Assembly: GCA_963755915.1 (NCBI GenBank)
Contig: CAVWLP010000002.1
Coordinates: forward strand, 1,728,001-1,792,000
Origin: an uncultured Phycisphaerales bacterium
GTDB taxonomy: Bacteria; Planctomycetota; Phycisphaerae; Tepidisphaerales; Tepidisphaeraceae
Reading direction: 5' to 3'
DNA length: 64,000 bases
Shown here: positions 3,420 to 46,345 of the stretch, one piece after another
Numbering within the stretch: the stretch's first letter is position 1
Layout of the letters: each line of letters starts with the position of its first letter
Program-made: the position numbers and the translations under genes
Notes under the pieces: generated by a model
Told to the model about the DNA's origin: nothing
Database searches by the model: none
What the model saw: the letters and a program-made list of their open reading frames with translations, nothing else

Positions 3420-4316
3420 TCAAAGCCCGCCGCGCAGGGGGGTGATGATATGCAGGCGATCTTCGACGAGCTTCATGAGGAAGCTGAGGCGATTTTGGTG
3501 GAAGGCGCGGATGGGGGCCTGGGGGTCGGGGAAGTTTTGGGGGAGGGGCCAGTCGGGGGGGAGCAAATCTTTTTGGGGGATGTCGCGGGATTGGCGAAGG
3601 TCGCCGATTTCCATGTCGGTGAGGATTCGGGATTGGCACCAAGGGAGGATATCGCGGGCGTGGAGGGAGATGGGTTGTTCTGGCGCGGGGTCGGGCCAGG
3701 GGCCGATGCTGGTCCGGCGAAGTTGGCTGAGGTGAGCGCCGCAGCCTGCAAGACGTCCAAGGTCGCGGGCGAGGGCGCGGACGTAGTAGCCGCCGCGGAC
3801 GGTCATTTTGAGGGTGCTTTCGTGGGGGAGATTGTGATTCAGGAAGGCGGCTTCGTGGAGGTAGACGCGGGAGGAGGGCATGACGACGTCTTCGCCGCGG
3901 TGGGCTTTAAGATAGGCGCGTTCGCCGGCGACGCGTTTGTTGCTGGTGGGGTGGGGGGTTTGGTCGTGCCAGCCTTGGAATTGTTTCAGGAGATCGTCGA
4001 GGTGTTGGGGCGTGAGGGTGGAGGGATCGCCTTGGGAGATGATGTGGCCGTGGGGGTCGCCGTTGTCGGTTTCAGTGCCCCAGCGGATGGTGGCCTCGTA
4101 GGTTTTGGGGATGGGGTGGAGGTAGTCGAAGAGGCGGGTGGCGGGTTCGACGAGGATGATCAGGAGCCCGGAGGCGAAGGGATCGAGAGCGCCGCCGTGA
4201 CAGATTCGGGGTGGGCGGCGGCCGGGGGCGGGCTGGAGGGATTTCATGCACGTTTGCACGACGGAAAAGCTGGTGGGGCCTGGGGGTTTGTGGAGGAGGT
4301 GGATGCCGGGGGTCAT
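3420..4316 (-). CDS. truB: tRNA pseudouridine(55) synthase TruB
   Basis: LHKPPGPTSF, HGGALDPFASGLL, KTYEATIRWGTETD, GGYYVRALARDLG, LSQLRRTSIGP. Confidence 0.93.
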   Translation of the reverse strand: MTPGIHLLHKPPGPTSFSVVQTCMKSLQPAPGRRPPRICHGGALDPFASGLLIILVEPATRLFDYLHPIPKTYEATIRWGTETDNGDPHGHIISQGDPSTLTPQHLDDLLKQFQGWHDQTPHPTSNKRVAGERAYLKAHRGEDVVMPSSRVYLHEAAFLNHNLPHESTLKMTVRGGYYVRALARDLGRLAGCGAHLSQLRRTSIGPWPDPAPEQPISLHARDILPWCQSRILTDMEIGDLRQSRDIPQKDLLPPDWPLPQNFPDPQAPIRAFHQNRLSFLMKLVEDRLHIITPLRGGL

Positions 4317-9290: not shown

Positions 9291-10031
9291 ATGTATTCGA
9301 TTGTCATTTGCTCGAAGGATGATGCGAAGTTCTCCGCCGTGTCGGCGAACCTGAGAGACCGGTTCGGCGGGCGGGAATTTGAGATCGTGCGGATTGCTGA
9401 TGCGCAATCGATGGCCGAGGGGTATAACCGCGGGGTGGCGCAGGCGCGCGGCGAGCGGGTGGTTTTTTGTCACGATGATATTGAGATTCTCAATCCCGAG
9501 GCGGTCGAGCGGCTGGAGGAGCACCTGGGAAAATTCGACATCGTGGGGATCGCAGGGGCGGATCGCCTGATCGTGGCCTCCTGGGTGGGCGCGGGACCGC
9601 TGCATACGTTTGGGCAGGTGGCCCAGTTTCAGGAGGACGGGAGCCTGGCGGTTTTTCTGTTTGGGACATCCCAGCGCGTGACCGGGGGGATGCAGGCGCT
9701 GGATGGGGTCTTTTTGGCCGTGAACCGCCGGGTGTTTGCGAAGATTTCGTTTGACGCGAAAACGTTTGATGGGTTTCACCATTACGATCTGGATTTTACG
9801 TTTGCGGCATACCTGGCGGGATTTCAAATCGGGGCGGCGAGCGATGTGCATTTGCTGCACGCGTCGATGGGGACCTGGGACGAGGCATGGAGGCGGTATG
9901 CGGGGATTTTTACGGCGAAATATCGGAAGCAGCTTTATCCAGAGCCGCTGAGGAAGCATTTTTCGGCGCGGATATTCGCGAAGAGCAAGGAGGAGTGTGC
10001 GGAAATTATGCGCGAGGCGACGCCGAAATAA
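9291..10031 (+). CDS. GT2-like glycosyltransferase
   Basis: YSIVICS, SMAEGYNRG, VVFCHDD, ALDGVFLAV, FHHYDLD. Confidence 0.88.
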   Translation: MYSIVICSKDDAKFSAVSANLRDRFGGREFEIVRIADAQSMAEGYNRGVAQARGERVVFCHDDIEILNPEAVERLEEHLGKFDIVGIAGADRLIVASWVGAGPLHTFGQVAQFQEDGSLAVFLFGTSQRVTGGMQALDGVFLAVNRRVFAKISFDAKTFDGFHHYDLDFTFAAYLAGFQIGAASDVHLLHASMGTWDEAWRRYAGIFTAKYRKQLYPEPLRKHFSARIFAKSKEECAEIMREATPK

Positions 10032-10038
10032 GTTTTTT

Positions 10039-10070
10039 GTCCGTTTTGAGGGGCGAGCGGCCATATATAT
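10039..10070 (+). promoter_or_regulatory. GTCC-N19-CATATATAT motif, possible ECF sigma promoter (copy 1)
   Basis: Same two boxes with identical 19-nt spacing at 52912-52943. Confidence 0.4.
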
Positions 10071-10248
10071 CGGTGACACCCGAGCAGTTTCTGGGGCAGT
10101 TTCTGCGCCATCGGGGAGCTCGATCTGCAACAAAGGTCGAGGATCGTCGTCTTAATAGGTTGATGGACGGAATGCCGTGGCCGGTCAACCTTGCTGCGCG
10201 GGGGGGAGGTTTATTCTGGTCTGGTGACCACTTCTATAAACCGGAGCT

Positions 10249-16472: not shown

Positions 16473-17261
16473 ATGCACGACCCTAATTCCTGGCAGAACA
16501 AATTCCACCCCTACACGCTAACCCATCTATGCGTCGTGCTGGTGTTTCTGGCGTTCGTGGTGGCGATGGTGCTGATGCGGCGGAGCGATGTCGTCGCCGA
16601 CGATCCGCCGCTCCGGCGGAGGATGGATCGCATCATCGGGTGGATCTGCCTCGCCGGGGCCTGTTTCGTCCAGCTTGTCACGCTCTGGCCCTCGCGGTTT
16701 GATTATCGCGCCTCGCTGCCGCTGCATATCTGCGACATTGTGATGTTTGTGGCGCCGCTGGCGCTTTTGCTGCACTGGCGGTCGCTGCGGTCGATCGCCT
16801 ATTTCTGGGGGCTGGGGCTATCGTCGATCAGCTTTATTTATCCCGATCTGTGGTTTGGCCCAGGGCATTTTCAGTTCTGGGTCTTCTGGACGGGGCATGC
16901 CTGCATCGTCGGTGCGGCGCTCTATGACATCACCGGCTGCGGGTTCAGGCCGAAATGGCACGACTACCGCTTCATCGCCTGGTTTTCGATCCTGTACGTC
17001 GCCATCCTGCTTCCGATCGACGCCCGGTTTCACCTGAATTACGGCTATATCGGGAAGACCTATGGCGGCCAGCGCTCGCCCACGGATTTTCTGGGCGTCT
17101 GGCCCTGGCGGGTCCCCTTAATGCTCCTGATGGCGCTGGGGATAATGTTTGCTCTGCTGCTGCCCTGGGTGATCCGCCACAAGATCGCCGCGAAGAACCT
17201 GGAAGAGAAGCAGGAAAGCGGGGGACCGGCGCCGCAAGGGTTGCAGAGCGGGGTCCGATAA
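16473..17261 (+). CDS. YwaF/TIGR02206-like integral membrane protein
   Basis: SLPLHICD, NYGYI, LGVWPW; about 7 TM segments. Confidence 0.85.
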   Translation: MHDPNSWQNKFHPYTLTHLCVVLVFLAFVVAMVLMRRSDVVADDPPLRRRMDRIIGWICLAGACFVQLVTLWPSRFDYRASLPLHICDIVMFVAPLALLLHWRSLRSIAYFWGLGLSSISFIYPDLWFGPGHFQFWVFWTGHACIVGAALYDITGCGFRPKWHDYRFIAWFSILYVAILLPIDARFHLNYGYIGKTYGGQRSPTDFLGVWPWRVPLMLLMALGIMFALLLPWVIRHKIAAKNLEEKQESGGPAPQGLQSGVR

Positions 17262-35108: not shown

Positions 35109-38100
35109 TTATCCCAGCTTCGCCAACTCCGCCTCCACTTCCGCAAGCTGGTCCTTCGTCTGCTGAACCAGCTTCGCCGGCGCCTTGGAAATATACGCTT
35201 CATTCGCCAGCCGCGCATCCAGCGTCTGTTTCTGTTTCGCCAGCTCCTCCTTGCGCTTGCTCGTCCGCTCCCGCTCCACGTCTTCATTAACCAAATTCTC
35301 CACCACCACGGTGCAATCCCCGGTAGACGCATGCGCAATTCCCTCGCCGACCGCGACGCGTGCATCAACGCGAATAGTACATTTTGCCAGTAATTCGATC
35401 ATCTCGCGACTCGCCTCGATCTCCGCCCGCACCTTCGGATTCTCCGACGCGATGATCGCGCTGACAACCGCATTGTCTTTCGCCTCGAAGTCCGTCCGCA
35501 GCCGCCGAATCTCCTGGATCACTTTCTTAACGCGCGGAAACAGCTCATTCTCCGCCTCATCATCCACCGCCCCCCGCCGCGGCCACCGCGCATGCACCAG
35601 CCGCTTGCTCCCCTCATTCTCAATCCACCCAGGCAAGTTCCGCTCCCCGCGCACTTCATTCAATTTCCACCAGATCGTTTCAGTAATGAACGGCACCATC
35701 GGATGCATCAGCCGCAGCACCCCATCCAGCACCGCCGCCAGCACATTCCCCGTCTGCCCCGCCCGCTGCGAATCCTTCATCGCCGGCTTCGAGGCCTCCA
35801 CATACCACGAACAAAAATCCTCCCAGAAAAAGTCGTAACAGATTTTCGCATACTGATCGAACCGATAAGCCTCCAGCGCCGAATCCGCCTCGCCAACCGT
35901 CCGATTAAACCGCGACACAATCCACCGATCCGCCAGCGACCATTTCGACTCGTCCAGCACCACAGGCTTCACGCTCGCCAGGTTCGCGATCACGAAATGA
36001 TTCGCCACGTTCCAGATCTTGTTGCAGAAAAATCGCCCAATATCGAACTTGTCGGACGTATTCCTCCCTTGCGCATCCTTCTTCACCGGCATCCGCACAT
36101 CCTGCGTTTCGGTTGCCATCAGCGTCAACGTAAACCGCATCGCATCCGCCCCATGCGTCTGGATGATGTCCAGCGGATCAACCCCATTCCCCTTCGATTT
36201 GCTCATCCGCTCCCCCTTGCCGTCGAGGATCGTCGGGTGGATGTAGACGTGATGAAAAGGAATGCCCAGCTTTTTCCCGTCTCTTCCCTCTTTTCCCTCT
36301 TGTCCCTCTTTTCCCCGCCCCCGGTACTCCGGGGGAGGGTGAGGGAGGGGGTTCCCACTATGTGCTCTATTTTTTTCAAGGCCCTGACCCCGACCCTCTC
36401 CCGGAGTACTGGGCGAGGGGGAGGAGTCATGCTCGCCCATATTATACATCCCCAGCATCACCATCCTCGCCACCCAAAGCGTGATGATATCCCTCCCGGT
36501 CGCCAGCACATTCGTCGGATACCACTTCCGCAATTCCGCCGTCTCCTCCGGCCAACCCAGAGTGCTATGCGGCCAAAGCCCGGAGGAAAACCAGGTGTCG
36601 AGGACATCGGGGTCCTGCAAATATCCGCATTCTTCCAGCGCAGCGATGATCTCGGTGTCCGCGGGATCGCGCACGCATATATCAAACAATTCGCTGTCTG
36701 GATCCACTGGGCCAAGAGGGCCAAAATCCGCCAATAATCGGCCGCGCCGACAAAGGCGACCTGCTGTTTCCCATTTTTGAATCCGATTCAATATCGTGGC
36801 ACTAGATGCGGAAGCTGGACCACCCATCGCCCCAGGCTCCCTCCACACCGGAATCCGATGCCCCCACCAAAGCTGCCTCGAAATCGGCCAATCCCTCTTC
36901 TCCCCCAGCCAGCTCAAATACTGCTGCGCATGCCTCTCCGGAAAAAACTCAACAATCCCCTCCCTCACAACTTGAAGCGCCGGCTCCGCCAGCGGCGCCA
37001 TCGTCACAAACCACTGATCGCTCAAATACGGCTCCACCGGCGTCTTGCTCCGGTCGCTATGCCCCACCTGCGTCTCATACGGCTCCTCCTTCACCATCAG
37101 CCCCAGCCCCTCCAAATCCTCCACCACCTTCTTCCTTGCCGCCTCCCGCTTCATCCCGGCATACTTCCCCCCATTCTCGTTGATGGTCCCATCCGGATTC
37201 AGAATATTCACAATCTCAATCGCATCCGCCTTCCCCAAATGCCGCTGCCACACCGCATAGTCATTCGGATCATGCGCCGGCGTCACCTTCACCACGCCCG
37301 ACCCAAACTTCGGATCCACCAGAATATCATCCGCGATAATCGGAATTCTCTTATTCACCAGCGGCAAATCCACGCTCTTCCCAATCGCCCAGTTCCACCG
37401 CTCATCTTCCGAATGCACCGCCACCGCCGTATCCCCCAGCATCGTCTCCGGCCGCGTCGTCGCCACGATCATCGCCTTATCCGTCCCAGTTATCGGATAC
37501 CGGATATGCCACAACGATGTCTTCACCGTCTCATGAAAAATCTCGTCGTCGGAGATGGAAGTCTGCAAGTGAATATCCCAATTCACCATCCGCTTCCCCC
37601 GATAAATCAGCCCATCCCTGAACAGCTTGAAGAAAGTCTCCCTTACCGCCCGCGCACACTGTTCATCCAGCGTGAATCGCAGCCGGTCCCAATCGCACGA
37701 GCACCCCATCCGCTTGATCTGCTCGAGGATCCGGTCCCCATACTCCTGCTTCCACTCCCAAATCCGGCGGACGAGTTCTTCGCGCCCCAAATCATGCCGC
37801 GTCTTGTTCTCCTTCTCCTTGAGCTGTTTCTCCACCACCGCCTGCGTCGCAATCCCCGCATGATCGATCCCCAGCACCCAAAGCGCATTAAACCCCCGCA
37901 TCCGGTGATTCCGGATCATCACATCCTGCAAAGTATTATTAATCGCATGCCCCAGATGCAGCGCCCCGGTAACATTCGGCGGCGGAATCACAATACAATA
38001 CGCCTCCCCGGGCCCCGAAGGATCCGCCGCAAAACACTTCTCCTCCAGCCAAACCCGATTGGCCTGCGCCTCAATCGTCGCCGGATCATAATTTTTCGCC

Positions 38101-38114
38101 GTTTCACCGCTCAT
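35109..38114 (-). CDS. valS: Valine--tRNA ligase
   Basis: PPPNVTGALHLGH, ATTRPETMLGD, KVTPAHDPND, ISRQLWWGH, DVLDTWFSS, RMSKSKGN; start could be TTG at 38120. Confidence 0.98.
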   Translation of the reverse strand: MSGETAKNYDPATIEAQANRVWLEEKCFAADPSGPGEAYCIVIPPPNVTGALHLGHAINNTLQDVMIRNHRMRGFNALWVLGIDHAGIATQAVVEKQLKEKENKTRHDLGREELVRRIWEWKQEYGDRILEQIKRMGCSCDWDRLRFTLDEQCARAVRETFFKLFRDGLIYRGKRMVNWDIHLQTSISDDEIFHETVKTSLWHIRYPITGTDKAMIVATTRPETMLGDTAVAVHSEDERWNWAIGKSVDLPLVNKRIPIIADDILVDPKFGSGVVKVTPAHDPNDYAVWQRHLGKADAIEIVNILNPDGTINENGGKYAGMKREAARKKVVEDLEGLGLMVKEEPYETQVGHSDRSKTPVEPYLSDQWFVTMAPLAEPALQVVREGIVEFFPERHAQQYLSWLGEKRDWPISRQLWWGHRIPVWREPGAMGGPASASSATILNRIQKWETAGRLCRRGRLLADFGPLGPVDPDSELFDICVRDPADTEIIAALEECGYLQDPDVLDTWFSSGLWPHSTLGWPEETAELRKWYPTNVLATGRDIITLWVARMVMLGMYNMGEHDSSPSPSTPGEGRGQGLEKNRAHSGNPLPHPPPEYRGRGKEGQEGKEGRDGKKLGIPFHHVYIHPTILDGKGERMSKSKGNGVDPLDIIQTHGADAMRFTLTLMATETQDVRMPVKKDAQGRNTSDKFDIGRFFCNKIWNVANHFVIANLASVKPVVLDESKWSLADRWIVSRFNRTVGEADSALEAYRFDQYAKICYDFFWEDFCSWYVEASKPAMKDSQRAGQTGNVLAAVLDGVLRLMHPMVPFITETIWWKLNEVRGERNLPGWIENEGSKRLVHARWPRRGAVDDEAENELFPRVKKVIQEIRRLRTDFEAKDNAVVSAIIASENPKVRAEIEASREMIELLAKCTIRVDARVAVGEGIAHASTGDCTVVVENLVNEDVERERTSKRKEELAKQKQTLDARLANEAYISKAPAKLVQQTKDQLAEVEAELAKLG
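36264..36431 (-). repeat. In-frame 168-bp insert in valS: two inverted family A REPs plus 9-mer repeats
   Basis: REP copies at 36313-36351 and 36381-36421; GGGAAAAGA-type 9-mers; translated as HDSSPSPSTPGEGRG...KEGQEGKEGRDGKKLG. Confidence 0.85.
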
Positions 38115-38318
38115 ATTCAAGCGAAAATCTTAAACGCTCGGACCGTCTTTGTCATATCGCCAATCGAATTTCACCGCCCGCTTCTCTGGAGATCGCGGAG
38201 AGCACGGAGAAAACAAAAAGACCACGGATTACACGGATGGGCACGGATAAGATGACCTTCCCCACGTTTGGTGGGCGCGGCCTGAAGCCGGATAATCCGG
38301 CTGAAGGAGCGAATTGCC

Positions 38319-38621
38319 ATGGGACGCAAACATTATTCCAGGGAGTTTCAGGACGAAGCCTGCAAACTCGTCACCGATCAAGGCTACACACAAAGGAAAG
38401 CGGCCCAGGAACTGGGCCTTCCGGTGCACATCGTGCATCACTGGATGAAAAAACGTGGACTGATCAAGCCCGCGGCTGAGGAGCCCGCGTTTCCAGACAC
38501 CAACGATCCGACGCTGCTCAAGGCCCGCATCCGCGAGTTGCAAAAGCAATTGCGGCGGGTCGAAACCGAGAAGGAGATTTTAAAAAAAGCGACGGCCTAC
38601 TTCGCCAGCCAGAACCCATGA
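38319..38621 (+). CDS. IS3 transposase OrfA (HTH)
   Basis: RKHYSREFQDEA..AAQELG..W; coiled coil ending EKEILKKATAYF. Confidence 0.95.
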   Translation: MGRKHYSREFQDEACKLVTDQGYTQRKAAQELGLPVHIVHHWMKKRGLIKPAAEEPAFPDTNDPTLLKARIRELQKQLRRVETEKEILKKATAYFASQNP

Positions 38622-39478
38622 GATTCGCCTGGATCAAAGAACATTGGGACCCGTTCGATCTGGCCGCATTGTGCGATGCGCTGGAAGTCAGCCGCAGCGG
38701 GTATTACGCCTGGCTGAAACGTCCAGCCAGCCCGCGGCACAAGCGCCGGGAAGAGCTGACTGAGAAGATCCGCGAGGTTCATGAGGAGAGTCGCTATACC
38801 TACGGCAGCCCGCGGGTGCACGCGGAGCTGGCGGATCGGCAGGTGAGCGTCTGCGTGAACACGGTGGCGCGTCTGATGAAACAGGCCGGATTGCAATCGC
38901 GGATTCGCCGGCGATTCGTCGTCCATACCACCGATTCGAATCACGATGAGCCGGTCGCGGCCAATGTGCTGGACCGCCAGTTCGCAACTGAGGCGCCCAA
39001 CCGCAAGTGGTGCTGCGACATCACCTACGTTCCGACGGATGAAGGATTCCTATACCTGGCGGCCGTGATCGACCTGTGCAGTCGGAAAATAGTCGGCTGG
39101 TCGATGGCCGATCATCTGCGAAGTGAGCTGTGTCTGGAAGCGATATCGATGGCGCTGACACATCGCCGACCGGAGCGAGGTTTGCTGCACCACTCCGATC
39201 GCGGTGTCCAATACGCCTGCGAGACTTATCGACAGATGCTGGCGGAGCATGGGATGGAGCGGAGCATGAGCCGCACCGGCAATTGCTACGACAACGCGGT
39301 GATGGAGAGCTTTTTCAGCACGCTGAAGACGGAGCTCATTTATCACGAGCACTACGCAACGCAAGCGGAGGCTCGGCGTTCGATCTTTGAGTACATTGAA
39401 GTGTTTTACAATCGCCAGAGACGTCACTCGGCGATAGGCTACCAAAGCCCCGAAGCGTTCGAGGCCAGCCTGAACTGA
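38618..39478 (+). CDS. IS3 transposase OrfB (DDE)
   Basis: YGSPRV, WCCDITY, HHSDRGVQY, CYDNAVMESFF, FYNRQRRHS. Confidence 0.96.
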   Translation: MRFAWIKEHWDPFDLAALCDALEVSRSGYYAWLKRPASPRHKRREELTEKIREVHEESRYTYGSPRVHAELADRQVSVCVNTVARLMKQAGLQSRIRRRFVVHTTDSNHDEPVAANVLDRQFATEAPNRKWCCDITYVPTDEGFLYLAAVIDLCSRKIVGWSMADHLRSELCLEAISMALTHRRPERGLLHHSDRGVQYACETYRQMLAEHGMERSMSRTGNCYDNAVMESFFSTLKTELIYHEHYATQAEARRSIFEYIEVFYNRQRRHSAIGYQSPEAFEASLN

Positions 39479-40553: not shown

Positions 40554-42041
40554 TAATCCCGTTCGGCACGCAGGCTTCATCGGAGCATTCCAAAGCTGTG
40601 GAGGACGCGAAACAATTGAAGCTTAGATACTTTTACTTTCCCCTGCTGCACGCCGGCGTCCGCAAGAGCGCAGCATCAACCGCGAGGTCTCCGCGGCGAC
40701 GGATTCCCCTTCAGTTTACTCCCAGTTTTTTCAAGGCCTCCGCTCTTGCCCTCAGCTTAATCCCGGTGTTATCCGGCTTGTTCAGGAATCGAAGCACGTC
40801 CTGTTCCTCGGCCAGCCCCAGCAGATACCAGCCGATCATGTTCCGCATCGCCTTGTTCGGCTTCCTGCCGCTGATCAGCTGAATCAGCACGCAGACGATC
40901 AGCGCCAGTGGATTTGGATGTCGATCCCCTCCTGGCGTTGGCTCAGCAGGTGACGCATGCCCAGCAGTTGCTTGAAGATCCGGAAGAACAACTCAACGGT
41001 GTAGCGGTACAGATAAATCAGGGCGATCAATTCCGCCGGCAGGTCCAGCAGGTTCGTGTACAGGATGATCAGGTCCGTCGGCTTGTTGCCGCTGCGCGTG
41101 CGGCGCGGATGGGGTTTCACCTGCACTTCCACCCGTCGCACCACCCTATCCGCCGCCGTCTCCAGGCCGTCGAGTTTCACCAGCGCGTCTCGCACCACGC
41201 CGCCGTCCAATGCTTCCTGTGAAAGCAATCGTTCTTCAAACAGCTCAAACACCGAGTTTTCCGCGGCCCGCATCACAAAGGAGCTTTGCGCCGCGGCGAT
41301 GTCCGCAAAGAGGCTCCGGTCGGCGTAGCCGCCGTCTCCTACATAGCACCGTCCTGCTTCCAGGCTGCGCCGCAGGACGTTGTTTTCACGGTTGGCCCCC
41401 GCGTTGCGAGCGCCAGTGCGGTCGAGGCGATGGACTTTGAACGTCTCCAGATCGAATTGAACGTGCAAACGCCAGCCATAGACCGCTTTCCCGTCCCGGG
41501 AGGTGTTGTAGCGCGCATCGATGCCGCAAGCGGATTTGGCCAGCCGACTCAGCGCCGTCAGCACCGTCCCGTCGACCAGCGTGATCGCCTGCCCAAAGTC
41601 CGCAAGACGCGGATCGGGCGCCGGGGCAGTTCCCCCGCCAATTCCTCAATCAGCGGCGTCAAACGCCCCGGCTCGAACACCCGAACCGATTCAGAGAAAC
41701 TGCCCACGGAAAAACGCTTAATTCCCAGCGCCTTGGCCACCTTGGGCAGTTCAGCAACCTCCTGAAGATCCCGCAGGGATTGGATCAGCGGATTCCAGGT
41801 GTAAAGCAAAACCAGCTTGCAATAATCGTCGAAGTGAAGCTGGCGGTTCCCGGCTCGATCCCGCTCACAGCCCACATCCCGCAGCGTGGGCAGCAGCGCG
41901 AAGACGCGCCGCAGATGTCCGAGGCACAGGATCTCTTTTTCCTTCAGTCTTGCCTGCACGTCCGGCAGCATGCCATAAAAAGATCAAAGGCGCAATCTCA
42001 ATATCTTGCTGCTTGCGCGAACCCCGTGCCGAACGGGATTA
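40554..42041 (-). mobile_element. IS4-family insertion sequence, 1488 bp, complete ends
   Basis: Perfect 17-bp IR taatcccgttcggcacg; 9-bp target duplication acgaacagt (40545-40553 and 42042-42050). Confidence 0.93.
40711..41971 (-). CDS. IS4-family DDE transposase (frameshifts near 41618 and 40902)
   Basis: CYVGDGGY, IYLYRYTVELFFRIFKQ (YREK-like signature); C-terminus ...ALKKLGVN* ends at 40711. Confidence 0.9.
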
Positions 42042-42084: not shown

Positions 42085-42654
42085 ATGCTCGTGCTTATCG
42101 ATAACTACGACTCCTTCACCTACAACCTCGTCCAAAAACTTGGCGAAGTAGACCCCTCCCGCGAAATCCGCGTCTTCCGAAACGACAAGGTCACCCTCCC
42201 CGAAATCGAGGCCCTCAAACCCACCCACATCGTCATCTCCCCCGGCCCCTGCACCCCCAAAGAAGGCGGCATCAGCAACGACATCATCCGCCACTTCGGT
42301 CCAAAGCTCCCCCTCCTCGGCGTCTGCCTCGGCCACCAGTGCATAGGCTTCGTCAGCGGCGCCATCGTCGAACGCGCCCCCCGTCTCATGCACGGCAAAA
42401 CCGACAAAATCCACCACGACGGCAAAAGCATTTACGAAGGAATGCCCAACCCCTTCACCGCCACCCGCTACCACAGCCTCATCATCCGCGCCGGCACCCT
42501 CCCGCCGGATTACATCGTGACAAGCTGGACCGACCAGGACGAAATCATGGGCGTCCGCCACACCTCCTGGCCCCTCGAAGGCGTCCAATTCCACCCCGAA
42601 AGCTTCCTCACCGAGCAGGGCGAGCGATTACTCGCGAATTTTTTGAAGAAATAA
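42085..42654 (+). CDS. trpG: Anthranilate/aminodeoxychorismate synthase component II (glutamine amidotransferase)
   Basis: IDNYDSFTYNL, ISPGPC, GVCLGHQ, RYHSL, GVQFHPES; could equally be called pabA. Confidence 0.95.
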   Translation: MLVLIDNYDSFTYNLVQKLGEVDPSREIRVFRNDKVTLPEIEALKPTHIVISPGPCTPKEGGISNDIIRHFGPKLPLLGVCLGHQCIGFVSGAIVERAPRLMHGKTDKIHHDGKSIYEGMPNPFTATRYHSLIIRAGTLPPDYIVTSWTDQDEIMGVRHTSWPLEGVQFHPESFLTEQGERLLANFLKK

Positions 42655-42700: not shown

Positions 42701-44396
42701 ATGCAACTCGATCGGCTCAACAACCAAGACTGCATTGAAGGAATGTCCCAGATTAAGGAAGGCTCCATCGACCTCGCCTTCGCCGATCCCCCTTTCAACA
42801 TCGGTTACAAATACGACATCTACGAAGACCGCCGCAAGGCTGACGACTATCTCGACTGGACAAAGCAGTGGGGCCAAGCCCTCGTCCGCACCCTCAAACC
42901 GACCGGCACTTTTTGGCTCGCCATCGGCGACGACTTTGCGGCGGAGCTCAAATTGATCTTTCAGAAGGATCTTGGGCTTTTCTGCCGAAGTTGGGTCATT
43001 TGGTATTACACCTTTGGAGTAAACTGCAAGCAAAAATTCAGTCGCAGCCATACCCATCTTTTTCATTTTGTAAAGGATCCCAAAAATTTCACCTTCAATC
43101 GGAATTCCATTTTGGTTCCGTCGGCCCGCCAACTGGTATATTCGGACAAACGGGCAAATGAAAACGGGCGACTGCCAGATGACACTTGGATTCTTCGACC
43201 CCAAGAAGCTACTGGAAGCTTCAAACCGACAGAGGATACCTGGTACATTTCGCGGGTCTGCGGAACCTTCAAGGAGCGGGCTGGCTGGCACGGGTGCCAA
43301 ATGCCGGAGCAATTGCTTGGCCGAATCATAAAGGCGTCCTCGAACGAAGGCGAAACTGTTCTCGATCCGTTTGGCGGGAGCGGAACAACCCTTGCAGTCG
43401 CCAAAAAGCTGGGACGCCGTTTTATTGGATTTGAAGTTTCAAAAAACTACGCGAAGCAGATAGAGTCGCGTTTGAATTCAGCACAATTCGGAAGTCCGCT
43501 TTTAGGTGTATTGCCTCAAAGCGACAATCGCCCCGATCATGCCACCAAACGCGTGCAAAGAATTGCCCCGGCCTCCTCCTCCTCGCCCTCTCGTCAAGTG
43601 CCCAGAAAGTCGGACCTGCAATTTTCTGACGCTGGAATTGTTGAAGCTTTTCGCGTAGTTAGGGATGGCTTTCCGGTGGATCGCGTCATCGCAGACCCCG
43701 AGTTGAATCAGCGGTTTGCCGAGAAGTGCGCAGCTTGGGCTCTCGGGTAACCTCTGCAAATGGAACAACCGGTTGATGTACCTTCGTAAAGCGGGCAAGC
43801 TCAAGGGCTTTTCTCGATCAAGAATCACTACATTTGAATACGAAGAAAGGGAATACGACCGATATCGATTCGCCTGCGAGATCGCAATTCAGCATTTCGA
43901 ACAGGATGATTTGACGCTTGATAGTGTATTATGTGATCCAAATCTTGCTTCAAAGTTTGACGAATTCGTCTTAACGATGATTCCTGATAAGCCAAGCTCT
44001 CTAAAAATTCGTTGGTTTGCGCTGCGAATTCGCAAGAGTGCAACGCCAGATTTCAGAAAATCGGCAGCTCAAACTGAGCGCATACCTATGCCAAAGCCGC
44101 GCCAGAATCCTTTTGAGTTGACGCTTTCTGAGTTGCCAGCCCAGCCTGGCCTCTATTGGCTCTCAGGCAACAAGAAGAACCTATACGTTGGGGAAACTGA
44201 TAATCTGCGTGAGCGCGTTAAAACCCAATTTGGCCATCGCAAATTTGATTTTTGGAAGGTGCCACCGGATCATTTGGAGATATCAATTCGTGCTATCGAT
44301 GCCCCCGCGACAACTCTTCTGCAGAGATATCAATCTCGGTGGATTTCCGAGTGGCAACCGATCGGAAACTATTCGAAATTAGCAGCGGCGGAATGA
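42701..44396 (+). CDS. Beta-class N4C/N6A DNA methyltransferase fused to two ~60-aa repeats and a GIY-YIG-like domain (frameshift near 43729)
   Basis: FADPPFN first, then HGCQMP...LDPFGGSGTT; a repeat unit spans the frameshift; C-terminal PGLYWL...LYVGETDNLRER...PIGN. Confidence 0.8.
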
Positions 44397-45172
44397 ATGA
44401 TACGCCCGTAAAACAAGCCTTCAAATTGGTCCGGGAAAGCCGCTCGCCTGAATATGTCATTTGTGACCCTGTCCTAAACGAGAAATTCCTTACTCAGGCC
44501 CGACGTCTCGGTTTCGATCGAACTGACGCCGAAATCAATACGGAGCTAATCAATCTACGAAAGGCAAATAAGCTCAAGGATTGCCCTACGAGCAATCGGG
44601 AAAAGCCCGACCCCAATCGGAGACGTTATCTGAACGCGGTGTTGAACGGCGCCCGAATGCTCGAGCGGCAATTTGGAAAGAACGTGGATAATATCATCTG
44701 CGATCCGGTGGCTCGTGCGCAATTCGACGCTTTGATCCAATTTTTGAGTCCTGGAGCATCGAAATTTGAGACCCAATACGCGGCTTTAAGCCTGCGCAAG
44801 TCGAGACGATTACGCCCAGAGCCTATTGGGCAAATCGTTCGTGCTGTTGCGAGTAACTTCGTCAATCTCGTGGAACTGGAACGGCGTATCAATCAGGTAC
44901 CGGATCACCCCGGAGTCTACATGTTCTTTGACGACCAAGTAACTTTGTATGTCGGGAAAGCAGATAGCCTTCGAAAAAGAATAAAGAAACACGTCTCGAC
45001 CTGGTCATACCGCGATATCATCAGTCGGATTCGTGACGGTCTGCAAGCAAACGCGTTCGTCGCCTATCACGAATTGCCCGTTACAATATCGAATTTGGAG
45101 CTTGCCGCTTACGAAACCGAGCTTATTCGCTCAAGAAAACCCGAACATAACCGCGCTGGTCGGATGACGTGA
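44393..45172 (+). CDS. GIY-YIG nuclease with two N-terminal ~60-aa repeats
   Basis: ATGA overlap with the upstream stop; PGVYMF...LYVGKADSLRKRIKKH...YETELI...PEHN. Confidence 0.88.
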   Translation: MNDTPVKQAFKLVRESRSPEYVICDPVLNEKFLTQARRLGFDRTDAEINTELINLRKANKLKDCPTSNREKPDPNRRRYLNAVLNGARMLERQFGKNVDNIICDPVARAQFDALIQFLSPGASKFETQYAALSLRKSRRLRPEPIGQIVRAVASNFVNLVELERRINQVPDHPGVYMFFDDQVTLYVGKADSLRKRIKKHVSTWSYRDIISRIRDGLQANAFVAYHELPVTISNLELAAYETELIRSRKPEHNRAGRMT

Positions 45173-45537
45173 CAATGAGCAAGAGCATTGCCAAGAAGTC
45201 ACTTGAAATGACAAGCCTTTTCGAGGCGGAGGTGCTCGTCCAACTAATGCTCAAAAATTGGGGACATCCAAGCGCTGCTGAGCCTGACTACGCTAACAAT
45301 GTACTCGAAAATGCCGCCGAGGCCCTTCGCGAGGCCATAAGCGGTGCCACCCTCATCGAGGGTGTCCCCCCAGCACAGATGAATCTGATCGCCGCCGTCT
45401 GGTATGTTGAAGATTCCGCGGCAAGCCACGAAGGTTTCGGTGCCGAGGAAATGACCGCAAGACGCAATTGGCTCTCCGCCGTACGCCGCGCCTTACCCTC
45501 ATGTTTTTGCGACCAGTCCGATCTTCAGGAACCCTGA
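45169..45537 (+). CDS. Small hypothetical helical protein, third gene of the island
   Basis: GTGA overlap with the GIY-YIG stop (alternative ATG at 45175); 122-aa ORF, same composition as the island. Confidence 0.7.
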   Translation: MTMSKSIAKKSLEMTSLFEAEVLVQLMLKNWGHPSAAEPDYANNVLENAAEALREAISGATLIEGVPPAQMNLIAAVWYVEDSAASHEGFGAEEMTARRNWLSAVRRALPSCFCDQSDLQEP

Positions 45538-45541
45538 CACC

Positions 45542-46345
45542 ATGCCCCCACCCACCGTCCAGCAAACCCGCGACCTCTGGGATCGCATCGCCCCATGGTG
45601 GGACCAGCAGCTCGCCGAAGGAAATGACTTCCAGAAAACCCTCATCATGCCCGCCACCGATCGCCTCCTCGCCCCCAAACCCGGCCAATCCATCCTCGAC
45701 ATCGCCTGCGGCAACGGAAACTATTCCCGCACCCTCGCCCGCAAAGGCGTCAACGTCGTCGCCTCCGACTACTCCCAGAAATTCCTCGACTGCGCCCGCG
45801 CCCGCACCACCCCCCAGGACGGCCAAATCGAATACCTCAACATCGACGCCACCAACATGGCCCAGCTCCTCGCCCTCGGCGTCGATCGCTTCGACGCCGC
45901 CGTCTGCAGCATGGCCATGATGGACATGGTCGCCATCGACCCCATGATGGACGCCCTCCGCGAAATCCTCAAACCGACAGCCCGCTTCGTCTTCTCGCTC
46001 CCCCACCCCTGCTTCAGCTCCAACGACATGAACTTCACCGCCGACCTCGAAATCCGCGGCGAAAAAATCGAGCAAACCTACGGCATAGAAATCCGCAAAT
46101 ACCTCACCCAGGAATCCGGCCGCAGTGTCGGCCTCCTCAACCAGCCCGAGCCCCACTATTTCTTCCACCGCCCCCTAAGCGCCATTTTCGCCGCCTGCTT
46201 CTCCGCCGGCTTCGTCATCGACGGCGTAGAAGAACCCGCCTTCCCCAAATCTTCCTTCGCCAAAAACGCCTTCAGTTGGCCCAAGCGCCCCGAAATTCCT
46301 CCCGCCATCGTCCTCCGCGCCGTCCCCAAACCCGAATGCGACTGA
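45542..46345 (+). CDS. Class I SAM-dependent methyltransferase
   Basis: ILDIACGNG, FDAAVCSMAMMD, FSLPHPCF, FHRPLS. Confidence 0.92.
   Translation: MPPPTVQQTRDLWDRIAPWWDQQLAEGNDFQKTLIMPATDRLLAPKPGQSILDIACGNGNYSRTLARKGVNVVASDYSQKFLDCARARTTPQDGQIEYLNIDATNMAQLLALGVDRFDAAVCSMAMMDMVAIDPMMDALREILKPTARFVFSLPHPCFSSNDMNFTADLEIRGEKIEQTYGIEIRKYLTQESGRSVGLLNQPEPHYFFHRPLSAIFAACFSAGFVIDGVEEPAFPKSSFAKNAFSWPKRPEIPPAIVLRAVPKPECD

Follow-up and report, generated by a model that had tools for sequence, protein, structure and literature searches.

Type II restriction-modification (R-M) systems with a GIY-YIG endonuclease, such as Eco29kI, Cfr42I and Hpy188I, combine a methylase gene with an adjoining gene of a GIY-YIG nuclease that carries the Tyr/Tyr/Arg/His/Glu/Asn set of residues. 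Judging by its sequence, the three-gene cassette analysed here is best read as resembling these systems. It lies in a stretch of 64,000 nt (hereafter the window) from the genome of an uncultured Phycisphaerales bacterium (assembly GCA_963755915.1, contig CAVWLP010000002.1, positions 1,728,001 to 1,792,000; the genome is designated G000 below). As in a Type II R-M system, its methylase and endonuclease genes are linked and co-inherited. The cassette differs from the three named systems in having a compact UvrC-like nuclease behind two helix-turn-helix (HTH)-like units, a dead paralog of this nuclease on the methylase, and a third gene, which could be assigned to no family. Tentatively, and short of real confidence, we favour the interpretation that it is a Type II-like R-M variant, which would displace a core orphan DNA methyltransferase (MTase) of its host and then decay to a new orphan. 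The observations behind this interpretation are the intact reading frame and architecture of gene 1, a conserved Glu-to-Gln replacement in its nuclease domain, the co-occurrence of the genes, and the pattern of displacement in the host family. The features of the locus are as follows.

42701..44396, plus strand: gene 1, 565 aa after correction of the assembly, predicted beta-class N4/N6 DNA methyltransferase followed by a pair of HTH-like units and a pseudo-GIY-YIG domain
42701..43495, plus strand: MTase domain of gene 1 (aa 1-265), with DPPF at 42785-42796 and FGGSG at 43370-43384
43634..44045, plus strand: tandem units 1 and 2 of gene 1, helical and HTH-like, lying across the assembly error
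43724..43729, plus strand: assembly error in a run of GC dinucleotides (short-read contigs, 4/4 runs, one study)
44127..44375, plus strand: pseudo-GIY-YIG domain of gene 1; Tyr, Tyr, Gly, Arg and Asn present, Gln codon 44331-44333 at the position of the metal-binding Glu
44393..45172, plus strand: gene 2, a UvrC-like GIY-YIG domain preceded by two HTH-like units, 259 aa
45169..45537, plus strand: gene 3, 120-122 aa, acidic, predicted all-helical, matching no known family
42085..42654, plus strand: trpG, flanking gene, followed on its 3' side by an insertion site whose content varies within the genus

The three genes run in the same direction between trpG and an S-adenosylmethionine (SAM)-methyltransferase gene (45542-46345). 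Genes 1 and 2 join in an ATGA overlap (start 44393, stop 44396, i.e. stop codon 44394-44396), and gene 3 may start either at GTG 45169, overlapping the stop of gene 2, or at ATG 45175. The GC content is 0.48-0.55 in the cassette vs 0.56-0.65 in most flanking bins, the GC skew is about 0 vs -0.25 to -0.45, and C occupies 0.20-0.39 of third codon positions in most of the cassette vs 0.68-0.72 in trpG, the SAM-methyltransferase gene and atpD. These values and coordinates bear out an earlier note, made from the letters of the window alone, which had described three overlap-coupled genes in AT-richer DNA without C-skew after trpG. The first ~80 codons of gene 1 (window 42701-42940) have, unlike the remaining cassette, host-like C at third positions (48/90 early vs 117/473 later; change point at codon 78; 0/1000 shuffles as strong). 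This codon use may point to recombination into a resident gene, although the nucleotide identity of gene 1 to its homologs is flat along the MTase domain.

In the assembly, gene 1 is split into two frames at the run of GC dinucleotides (43724..43729), two bases being missing behind 43727. One contig in each of the four short-read runs (4/4, all from one study, with the source sample possibly among them) spans the site with two extra bases (GC) and is otherwise identical, which rules out a programmed frameshift or a pseudogene. Moreover, all the longer homologs of the distal frame (107/107, 443-649 aa) are fusions with PF01555. Since the contigs add two bases and these homologs are fusions, gene 1 is a single protein of 565 aa, and the frameshift is an assembly error. 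Thus the earlier note was right to join gene 1 across a GCGC frameshift at about 43729, and the frameshift is present in the assembly, but the true sequence is uninterrupted according to the short reads.

The MTase domain of gene 1 belongs to PF01555 (E 8e-53, 180 bits vs a cut-off of 26.7), and DPPF (aa 29-32) precedes FGGSG (aa 224-228), an order that defines the beta class of amino-MTases and from which the note had correctly deduced this class. The domain shares 53% identity with the orphan MTase resident in a congener, and its closest named homologs are records from Tepidisphaeraceae and other Phycisphaerae, 76-81% identical to the ortholog P0288; no Eco57I or MmeI methylase match was obtained for gene 1. 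The tail of gene 1 and the complete gene 2 are paralogous modules (26% identity, E 1e-13), each consisting of two helical ~60-aa units and a GIY-YIG domain. Units 1 and 2 are homologous to each other (the hidden Markov model of unit 1 matches unit 2 with 29 bits), so that the two ~60-aa units and the shared C-terminal architecture of the note are confirmed; the tandem units are covered by no Pfam family. An active nuclease and a methylase in one chain, as in Type IIG/IIC enzymes, is not what gene 1 encodes, its fused GIY-YIG domain being devoid of the catalytic Glu.

As to gene 2, its fold and catalytic residues in silico allow us to predict an active GIY-YIG nuclease. Its units occupy aa 4-62 and 76-143, the catalytic set is complete (Y176, Y186, R196, H200, E241 with codon 45113-45115, and N253), and the model (predicted local distance difference test, pLDDT, 95.5) has the GIY-YIG domain of UvrC as its best structural match (1ycz: Z 9.2, root-mean-square deviation 2.5, 86 residues aligned). 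UvrC E76, the single metal ligand (PMC2241918, PMC3161791), aligns to E241, twelve residues ahead of the conserved Asn. A Glu in the E241 column is found in gene 2 and 87/90 search hits examined, and in 82/82 rows of alignment A8 it is invariant. In the gene 1 family this column is Gln in 104/107 fusions, including gene 1 itself, and the other site residues are retained (Y in 105, Y in 107, G in 107, R in 105 and N in 104 of the 107); in Eco29kI, the structure of the corresponding type of variant, E142Q, carries the title of an inactive one. As the proteins compared are only 44-78% identical, drift would not fix one residue, and selection thus maintains the domain as a copy that either does not cut or acts in another way: a conserved pseudo-nuclease, predicted not to bind the metal. 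The GIY-YIG motif set reported in the note is therefore full in gene 2 only, with the catalytic Glu replaced by Gln in gene 1, and with this conserved replacement the proposed heteromeric nuclease, taken as having two working sites, is not supported. Nor is a heteromer obligatory, because gene 1 exists without gene 2 (G157, G548, G225, G379 and several genomes of f26).

The N-terminal GIY-YIG domain of UvrC is the top structure and sequence match of the nuclease domains in both genes, which differ from it in standing without the rest of UvrC; the host genome has a distinct UvrC-like gene elsewhere (C2:468149). The UvrC likeness of the nuclease brings up an explanation in which the units read a modified base, a mismatch or another DNA structure, gene 2 is a Type IV-like or repair-type nickase that accompanies methylases, much as Vsr accompanies Dcm, and the dead copy parks the methylase at such sites. 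The invariance of the basic unit residues R56, R135 and K136, which extends to modules accompanying four other methylase kinds, and the existence of m6A (N6-methyladenine)-reading enzymes with a winged helix (wH) and GIY-YIG (PMC11037411) speak for it. Yet motifs specific for lesions were not found, the host itself would be under attack if the nuclease recognised the mark made by the cassette's methylase, and neither unit of the gene 2 model has a beta-wing (DSSP); we regard this explanation as unlikely. The wH-GIY-YIG Type IV enzymes Ahi29725I and Apa233I (PMC11037411) likewise have an HTH-type domain N-terminal to the nuclease; the cassette differs in that its nuclease has a pair of units lacking a wing, where those enzymes have a single DpnI-type winged helix, and is encoded with its own methylase. 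Unit 2 of gene 2 resembles HTH and winged-helix domains with Z 5-6, a level that may reflect a mere common arrangement. The units gave no Pfam or fold match to DpnI, whose chain is not among the 50 VIA rows for gene 2, though the two may be related.

Stand-alone tandem-unit GIY-YIG proteins with an intact site (e.g. P0105, P0106, P0129, L098:6467-7420, P0075) also exist, many of them with a signal-peptide-like N-terminus. A hydrophobic 13-mer was found in 28/41 rows having Glu, Tyr and an extension of 35-140 aa vs 6/42 other rows; the signal-peptide-bearing proteins are possibly exported nucleases of planctomycetes.

The order of genes 1, 2 and 3 recurs across Planctomycetota: it is intact in G204, G210, G223, G114, G818, L033, L036/L037, L106 and L120, and it is also found in L040, though gene 2 there contains a stop; the cassette of this last locus (L040:6280-10222) lies immediately upstream of thiE, i.e. 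in the position of the resident methylase of its relatives. These loci have no flanking gene family in common. The module was matched in 24/401 genomes of the class and 19/104 of the host family, and in 280 clusters at 50% identity (E <= 1e-30). Various states of decay are observed, with gene 1 cut off within unit 1 (G301), broken genes (G880, G453) or gene 2 absent (G157, G548). In other settings, where its site is usually degraded, the module is found as a fusion with Eco57I/DISARM-like methylases (G040, G397) or with HicB-type domains beside D12 methylases (G301, G087), or near HsdM and GmrSD (G016); it also occurs on or beside MmeI-type methylases. No gene 2 relative with the patterns of the close family was found in viral contigs, and inspection by eye of the sequences upstream of 13 methylase homologs showed no operator common to them. 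In L043-L045 the same parts are arranged in another way: a methylase that is unfused and more distant precedes an intact module, with a second module gene in convergent orientation. Some fused methylases and cassettes have TIR-domain genes, a SIR2-STAND gene, an MNT-HEPN pair or an Mrr-type nuclease as neighbours (L185:4075-5104 in G588; L037:1116-4217 and 9337-10075; L083:4648-5655).

The genes thus travel together in many other genomes, as the earlier note had proposed to check, and its idea of an inserted R-M-like module holds for the conservation, the foreign composition and the layout, but lacks support for a heteromer with two working nuclease sites; an anti-phage role, also named there, is conjectural. 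Its statement that no standard R-M layout could be recognised agrees with our searches, in which Pfam, NCBIfam, PADLOC and PHROGs gave domain-level matches and no model for the layout. Matches to PADLOC PDC-S14 and Uzume (UzuA) span 30-55 aa at the GIY-YIG motifs with 15-22 bits, and the cassette belongs to neither. No description of the layout was found in the literature searched, judged partly from passages, REBASE and DefenseFinder being outside the scope. The term Planctomyc- is absent from PMC4752239, PMC10853773 and PMC11037411, and occurs in PMC9516812 only within a reference.

Gene 3 (isoelectric point, pI, 4.6) has 45 homologs, itself included, and stands directly behind gene 2 or gene 1 in 45/45 locus rows holding it, these rows being redundant, with fewer genomes behind them; in the phylum it was matched in 3/401 genomes. 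Its model is all-helical (pLDDT 92). Foldseek gave no match at E <= 0.001, Pfam gave sub-threshold matches only across 51 family members, and in VIA (best Z 5.3) about 11/50 rows were C-terminal helical lobes of nucleotidyltransferases, too weak for use. The small acidic protein (family median pI 4.5) beside basic modules (pI 9.5-9.8) could be taken for an antidote, and genes 2 and 3 for a nuclease toxin with its antidote, acting in addiction or abortive infection and riding on the methylase without methylation deciding cleavage; related modules are indeed fused to HicB-type ribbon-helix-helix (RHH) and HTH_3 domains. However, G157 and G548 lack gene 2 but retain gene 3, gene 2-like nucleases adjoin the methylase without gene 3 (L140, L043-L045), and the conserved dead copy on the methylase is left unexplained, so we consider a toxin-antidote pair improbable.

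The methylase family itself is much wider than the cassette. It was found in 46/301 genomes of the phylum (one protein as the query, strict cut-off), being nearly fixed in some families (22/24, 7/7, 4/4) and not found in others, and in 100/104 genomes of the host family, nearly always once. A split by score into resident and cassette types (the latter in 16 genomes, >= 586 bits) shows that a resident-type match is absent in 14/16 cassette-type carriers (G223 and G453 have both types) and that a match is present in 84/88 remaining genomes of the family, the low-scoring rows among which were not each inspected. The carriers are 81-97% complete and related, and the count of 14/16 therefore overstates independence; the empty thiE sites described next do not depend on genome completeness. 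In most loci examined the resident gene is divergent from thiE. This site is empty in G000 and G883, where its neighbours abut; in 10/10 carriers tested besides G000 there is no intact resident copy within ~1-1.5 kb of thiE, and G108 retains a deleted remnant. In a quick tree of 66 rows, resident (99*) and cassette-type MTases are on separate branches, the latter within a 98* clade alongside homologs from Planctomycetia. A 146-row tree, unrooted and unable to distinguish gain from loss, requires 14 transitions between the fused and the stand-alone state, of which at least 6 are forced by starred branches; for G301 the stop inside unit 1 indicates loss of the tail. G283 is one row in the tallies, trees and k-mer test, and the conclusions do not depend on it. 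On this pattern the cassette seems to replace the near-universal orphan methylase of its host, the cause being proposed below.

The conserved orphan methylase Dcm, which is paired with the R-M system EcoRII, has a protective role. Like this pair, whose isospecificity is described in PMC12707154, the planctomycete case includes a lineage-wide orphan methylase and a mobile cassette with a homologous, apparently redundant methylase; it differs in that the cassette replaces the resident in 14/16 carriers and that its enzyme is a beta-class amino-methylase, probably making N4-methylcytosine (m4C). Within one bacterial family we see the full series of states: a resident orphan, a newly arrived nuclease cassette, a lost resident and, at the end, a cassette decayed to a new orphan. 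The series informs the question of how orphan methylases originate.

A methylase so common might have no role in defence at all, being a housekeeping epigenetic writer with DNA-anchoring or autoregulatory modules and with genes 2 and 3 as passengers. The best 80 of at least 586 confirmed methylase loci comprise 9 fused ones, 1 unfused one followed by gene 2, and 70 that are isolated amid housekeeping genes; several f26 genomes have the fused-only form as their sole copy; fusions of repressor domains to methylases have been described (PMC12707154), and DnmA-YeeB-YeeC showed no anti-phage role in B. subtilis (PMC9973331). The DnmA-YeeB-YeeC system and clusters of a methylase, a helicase and a GIY-YIG protein (PMC9973331, PMC4752239) share with our cassette the clustering of a methylase with a GIY-YIG gene and the decay to orphans, but have a helicase and an MmeI-like methylase, whereas the cassette has no helicase, a beta-class enzyme and a fused pseudo-nuclease. 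Retention of all catalytic residues by gene 2, with E241 unchanged throughout A8, argues against a mere passenger, and the cassette, like conflict systems, has a patchy distribution, a foreign base composition and many decaying copies. We give little credence to a purely housekeeping role.

The target of the methylase family is, quite likely, m4C at GCGC, as three indirect lines of evidence suggest. With one locus per genome, no other of 127 four-mers is as depleted in carriers as GCGC (median observed/expected ratio, O/E, 0.80 in 82 loci vs 0.97 in 17), and at GC >= 0.60 the ratios are 0.82 in carriers vs 0.96; it was the most carrier-depleted of 16 four-base palindromes prior to any comparison with the methylome literature. 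Base-calling errors arise at modified motifs, which might explain frameshifts at GCGC. Comparison of G000 with its relatives placed GCGC within 21 nt of 5/9 apparent frameshifts vs a background of 12.8% (p 0.003, uncorrected for the 8 motifs tried), and the verified assembly error in gene 1 is at GCGC as well. A planctomycete metagenome-assembled genome (MAG) had two methylated motifs, CAAAT, assigned to another enzyme by experiment, and m4C GCGC at 17,199/23,308 sites (PMC8919816); in the passages available the writer of the latter is not assigned, and the HpaI-like methylase of the MAG could not be cloned. By eye, this methylase shows the motifs of the family discussed here (PMC8919816 Data S2, S4). 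In a second study GCGC is methylated in every Planctomycetota genome (bioRxiv 10.64898/2026.06.24.734251). The family is thus a candidate for the m4C mark at GCGC, which both studies, in the parts available, report without an assigned writer, and the near-universal methylase of the host probably writes this lineage-wide mark; knowledge of the mark would aid DNA delivery into planctomycetes. CAGCTG was rejected as the target: it is strongly avoided in G000 (O/E 0.14) but also in loci of genomes without a methylase match, and this avoidance is seen in many other planctomycete loci, with or without the methylase. The Lake Biwa methylome paper (PMC6329791) does not, in the passages available, characterise a planctomycete enzyme.

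The R-M interpretation that we tentatively favour would operate as follows. Gene 1 would methylate host DNA, most likely at N4 of cytosine in GCGC, and gene 2, a single-metal GIY-YIG endonuclease presumably steered by its two HTH-like units, would nick or cut DNA without the mark. The dead module of gene 1, deprived of the catalytic metal by the Glu-to-Gln replacement, might bind the DNA sought by the nuclease without cutting it and thereby tether the methylase, protect those sites or serve as a repressor of the operon. The product of gene 3, which is acidic and invariably encoded behind basic modules, probably restrains them during establishment in a new host, which is the weakest step. The resident orphan would be lost because the incoming methylase performs the same job, and later decay of genes 2 and 3 and of the tail would leave a new orphan at a new site. 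An active nuclease with a conserved Glu-to-Gln copy of it on the methylase suggests a mechanism of self-protection which we have not found in the literature searched; if gene 2 is indeed a methylation-sensitive cutter or nickase, it could become a tool.

Several points weigh against this interpretation and against GCGC as its target. Depletion of GCGC is not visibly stronger in loci with full cassettes (0.55-1.02) than in other carriers, and the four-mer test disregards kinship, the carrier and non-carrier groups being taxonomically different. The frameshift test had n = 9, with 8 motifs tried and some events possibly being errors of the query genomes, and the MAG behind the argument by elimination scored 6.5% complete, with gene labels swapped between two supplementary tables. 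Full cassettes are mostly found among housekeeping genes rather than in defence islands, and the pseudo-nuclease fusion is kept without an adjoining gene 2 in several f26 and f22 genomes. The match of gene 2 to the restriction enzyme Eco29kI (Z 6.4) is below that to UvrC. A generic ligand of the units, rather than one sequence, better fits the invariance of R56, R135 and K136 across methylase kinds. Finally, restriction of unmethylated GCGC would be poor protection, as a defence, against phages from relatives that already methylate GCGC.

A bolder version of the R-M interpretation, to which we give a rather low probability, would make the cassette a new class of methylation-linked conflict system, whose methylase would have a conserved, catalytically dead paralog of the partner nuclease as its guide or guard. 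Such a cassette would spread by takeover of an apparently indispensable phylum-wide m4C-GCGC mark and would repeatedly renew the 'housekeeping' orphan of planctomycetes from selfish cassettes, the tandem-HTH unit being a DNA reader of a kind not yet described, which several methylase systems and the signal-peptide-bearing nucleases would each have put to use.

The site 3' of trpG varies among the relatives of G000. It is empty in G420 and G283, holds a truncated methylase in G301 and a lone cassette-type methylase in G883, and is occupied by other genes in G372 and G382. In G382 the 3' end of trpG is duplicated (L196:937-1041 and 4062-4167; 106 bp, 87%), bracketing a 3-kb GAF/PAS-LuxR insert, and this duplication suggests that trpG may be an integration hotspot. 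The insert of G372 (L052:2336-3374) is a different one, with two genes (168 and 193 aa) that have no Pfam match, the first being HEPN-like by eye. In the window, an IS3-type element and a two-frame DDE transposase gene (38319-39478 and 40899-41971) lie immediately upstream of trpG, and a valS-like open reading frame (35109-38120, minus strand) seems, as judged by eye, to have gained in frame ~45 residues of low complexity, which may represent a repeat element. A second PF01555-type methylase of 235 aa is encoded at 1808-2515 of the window; its SAM-binding motif precedes DPPY, the order opposite to that of gene 1.

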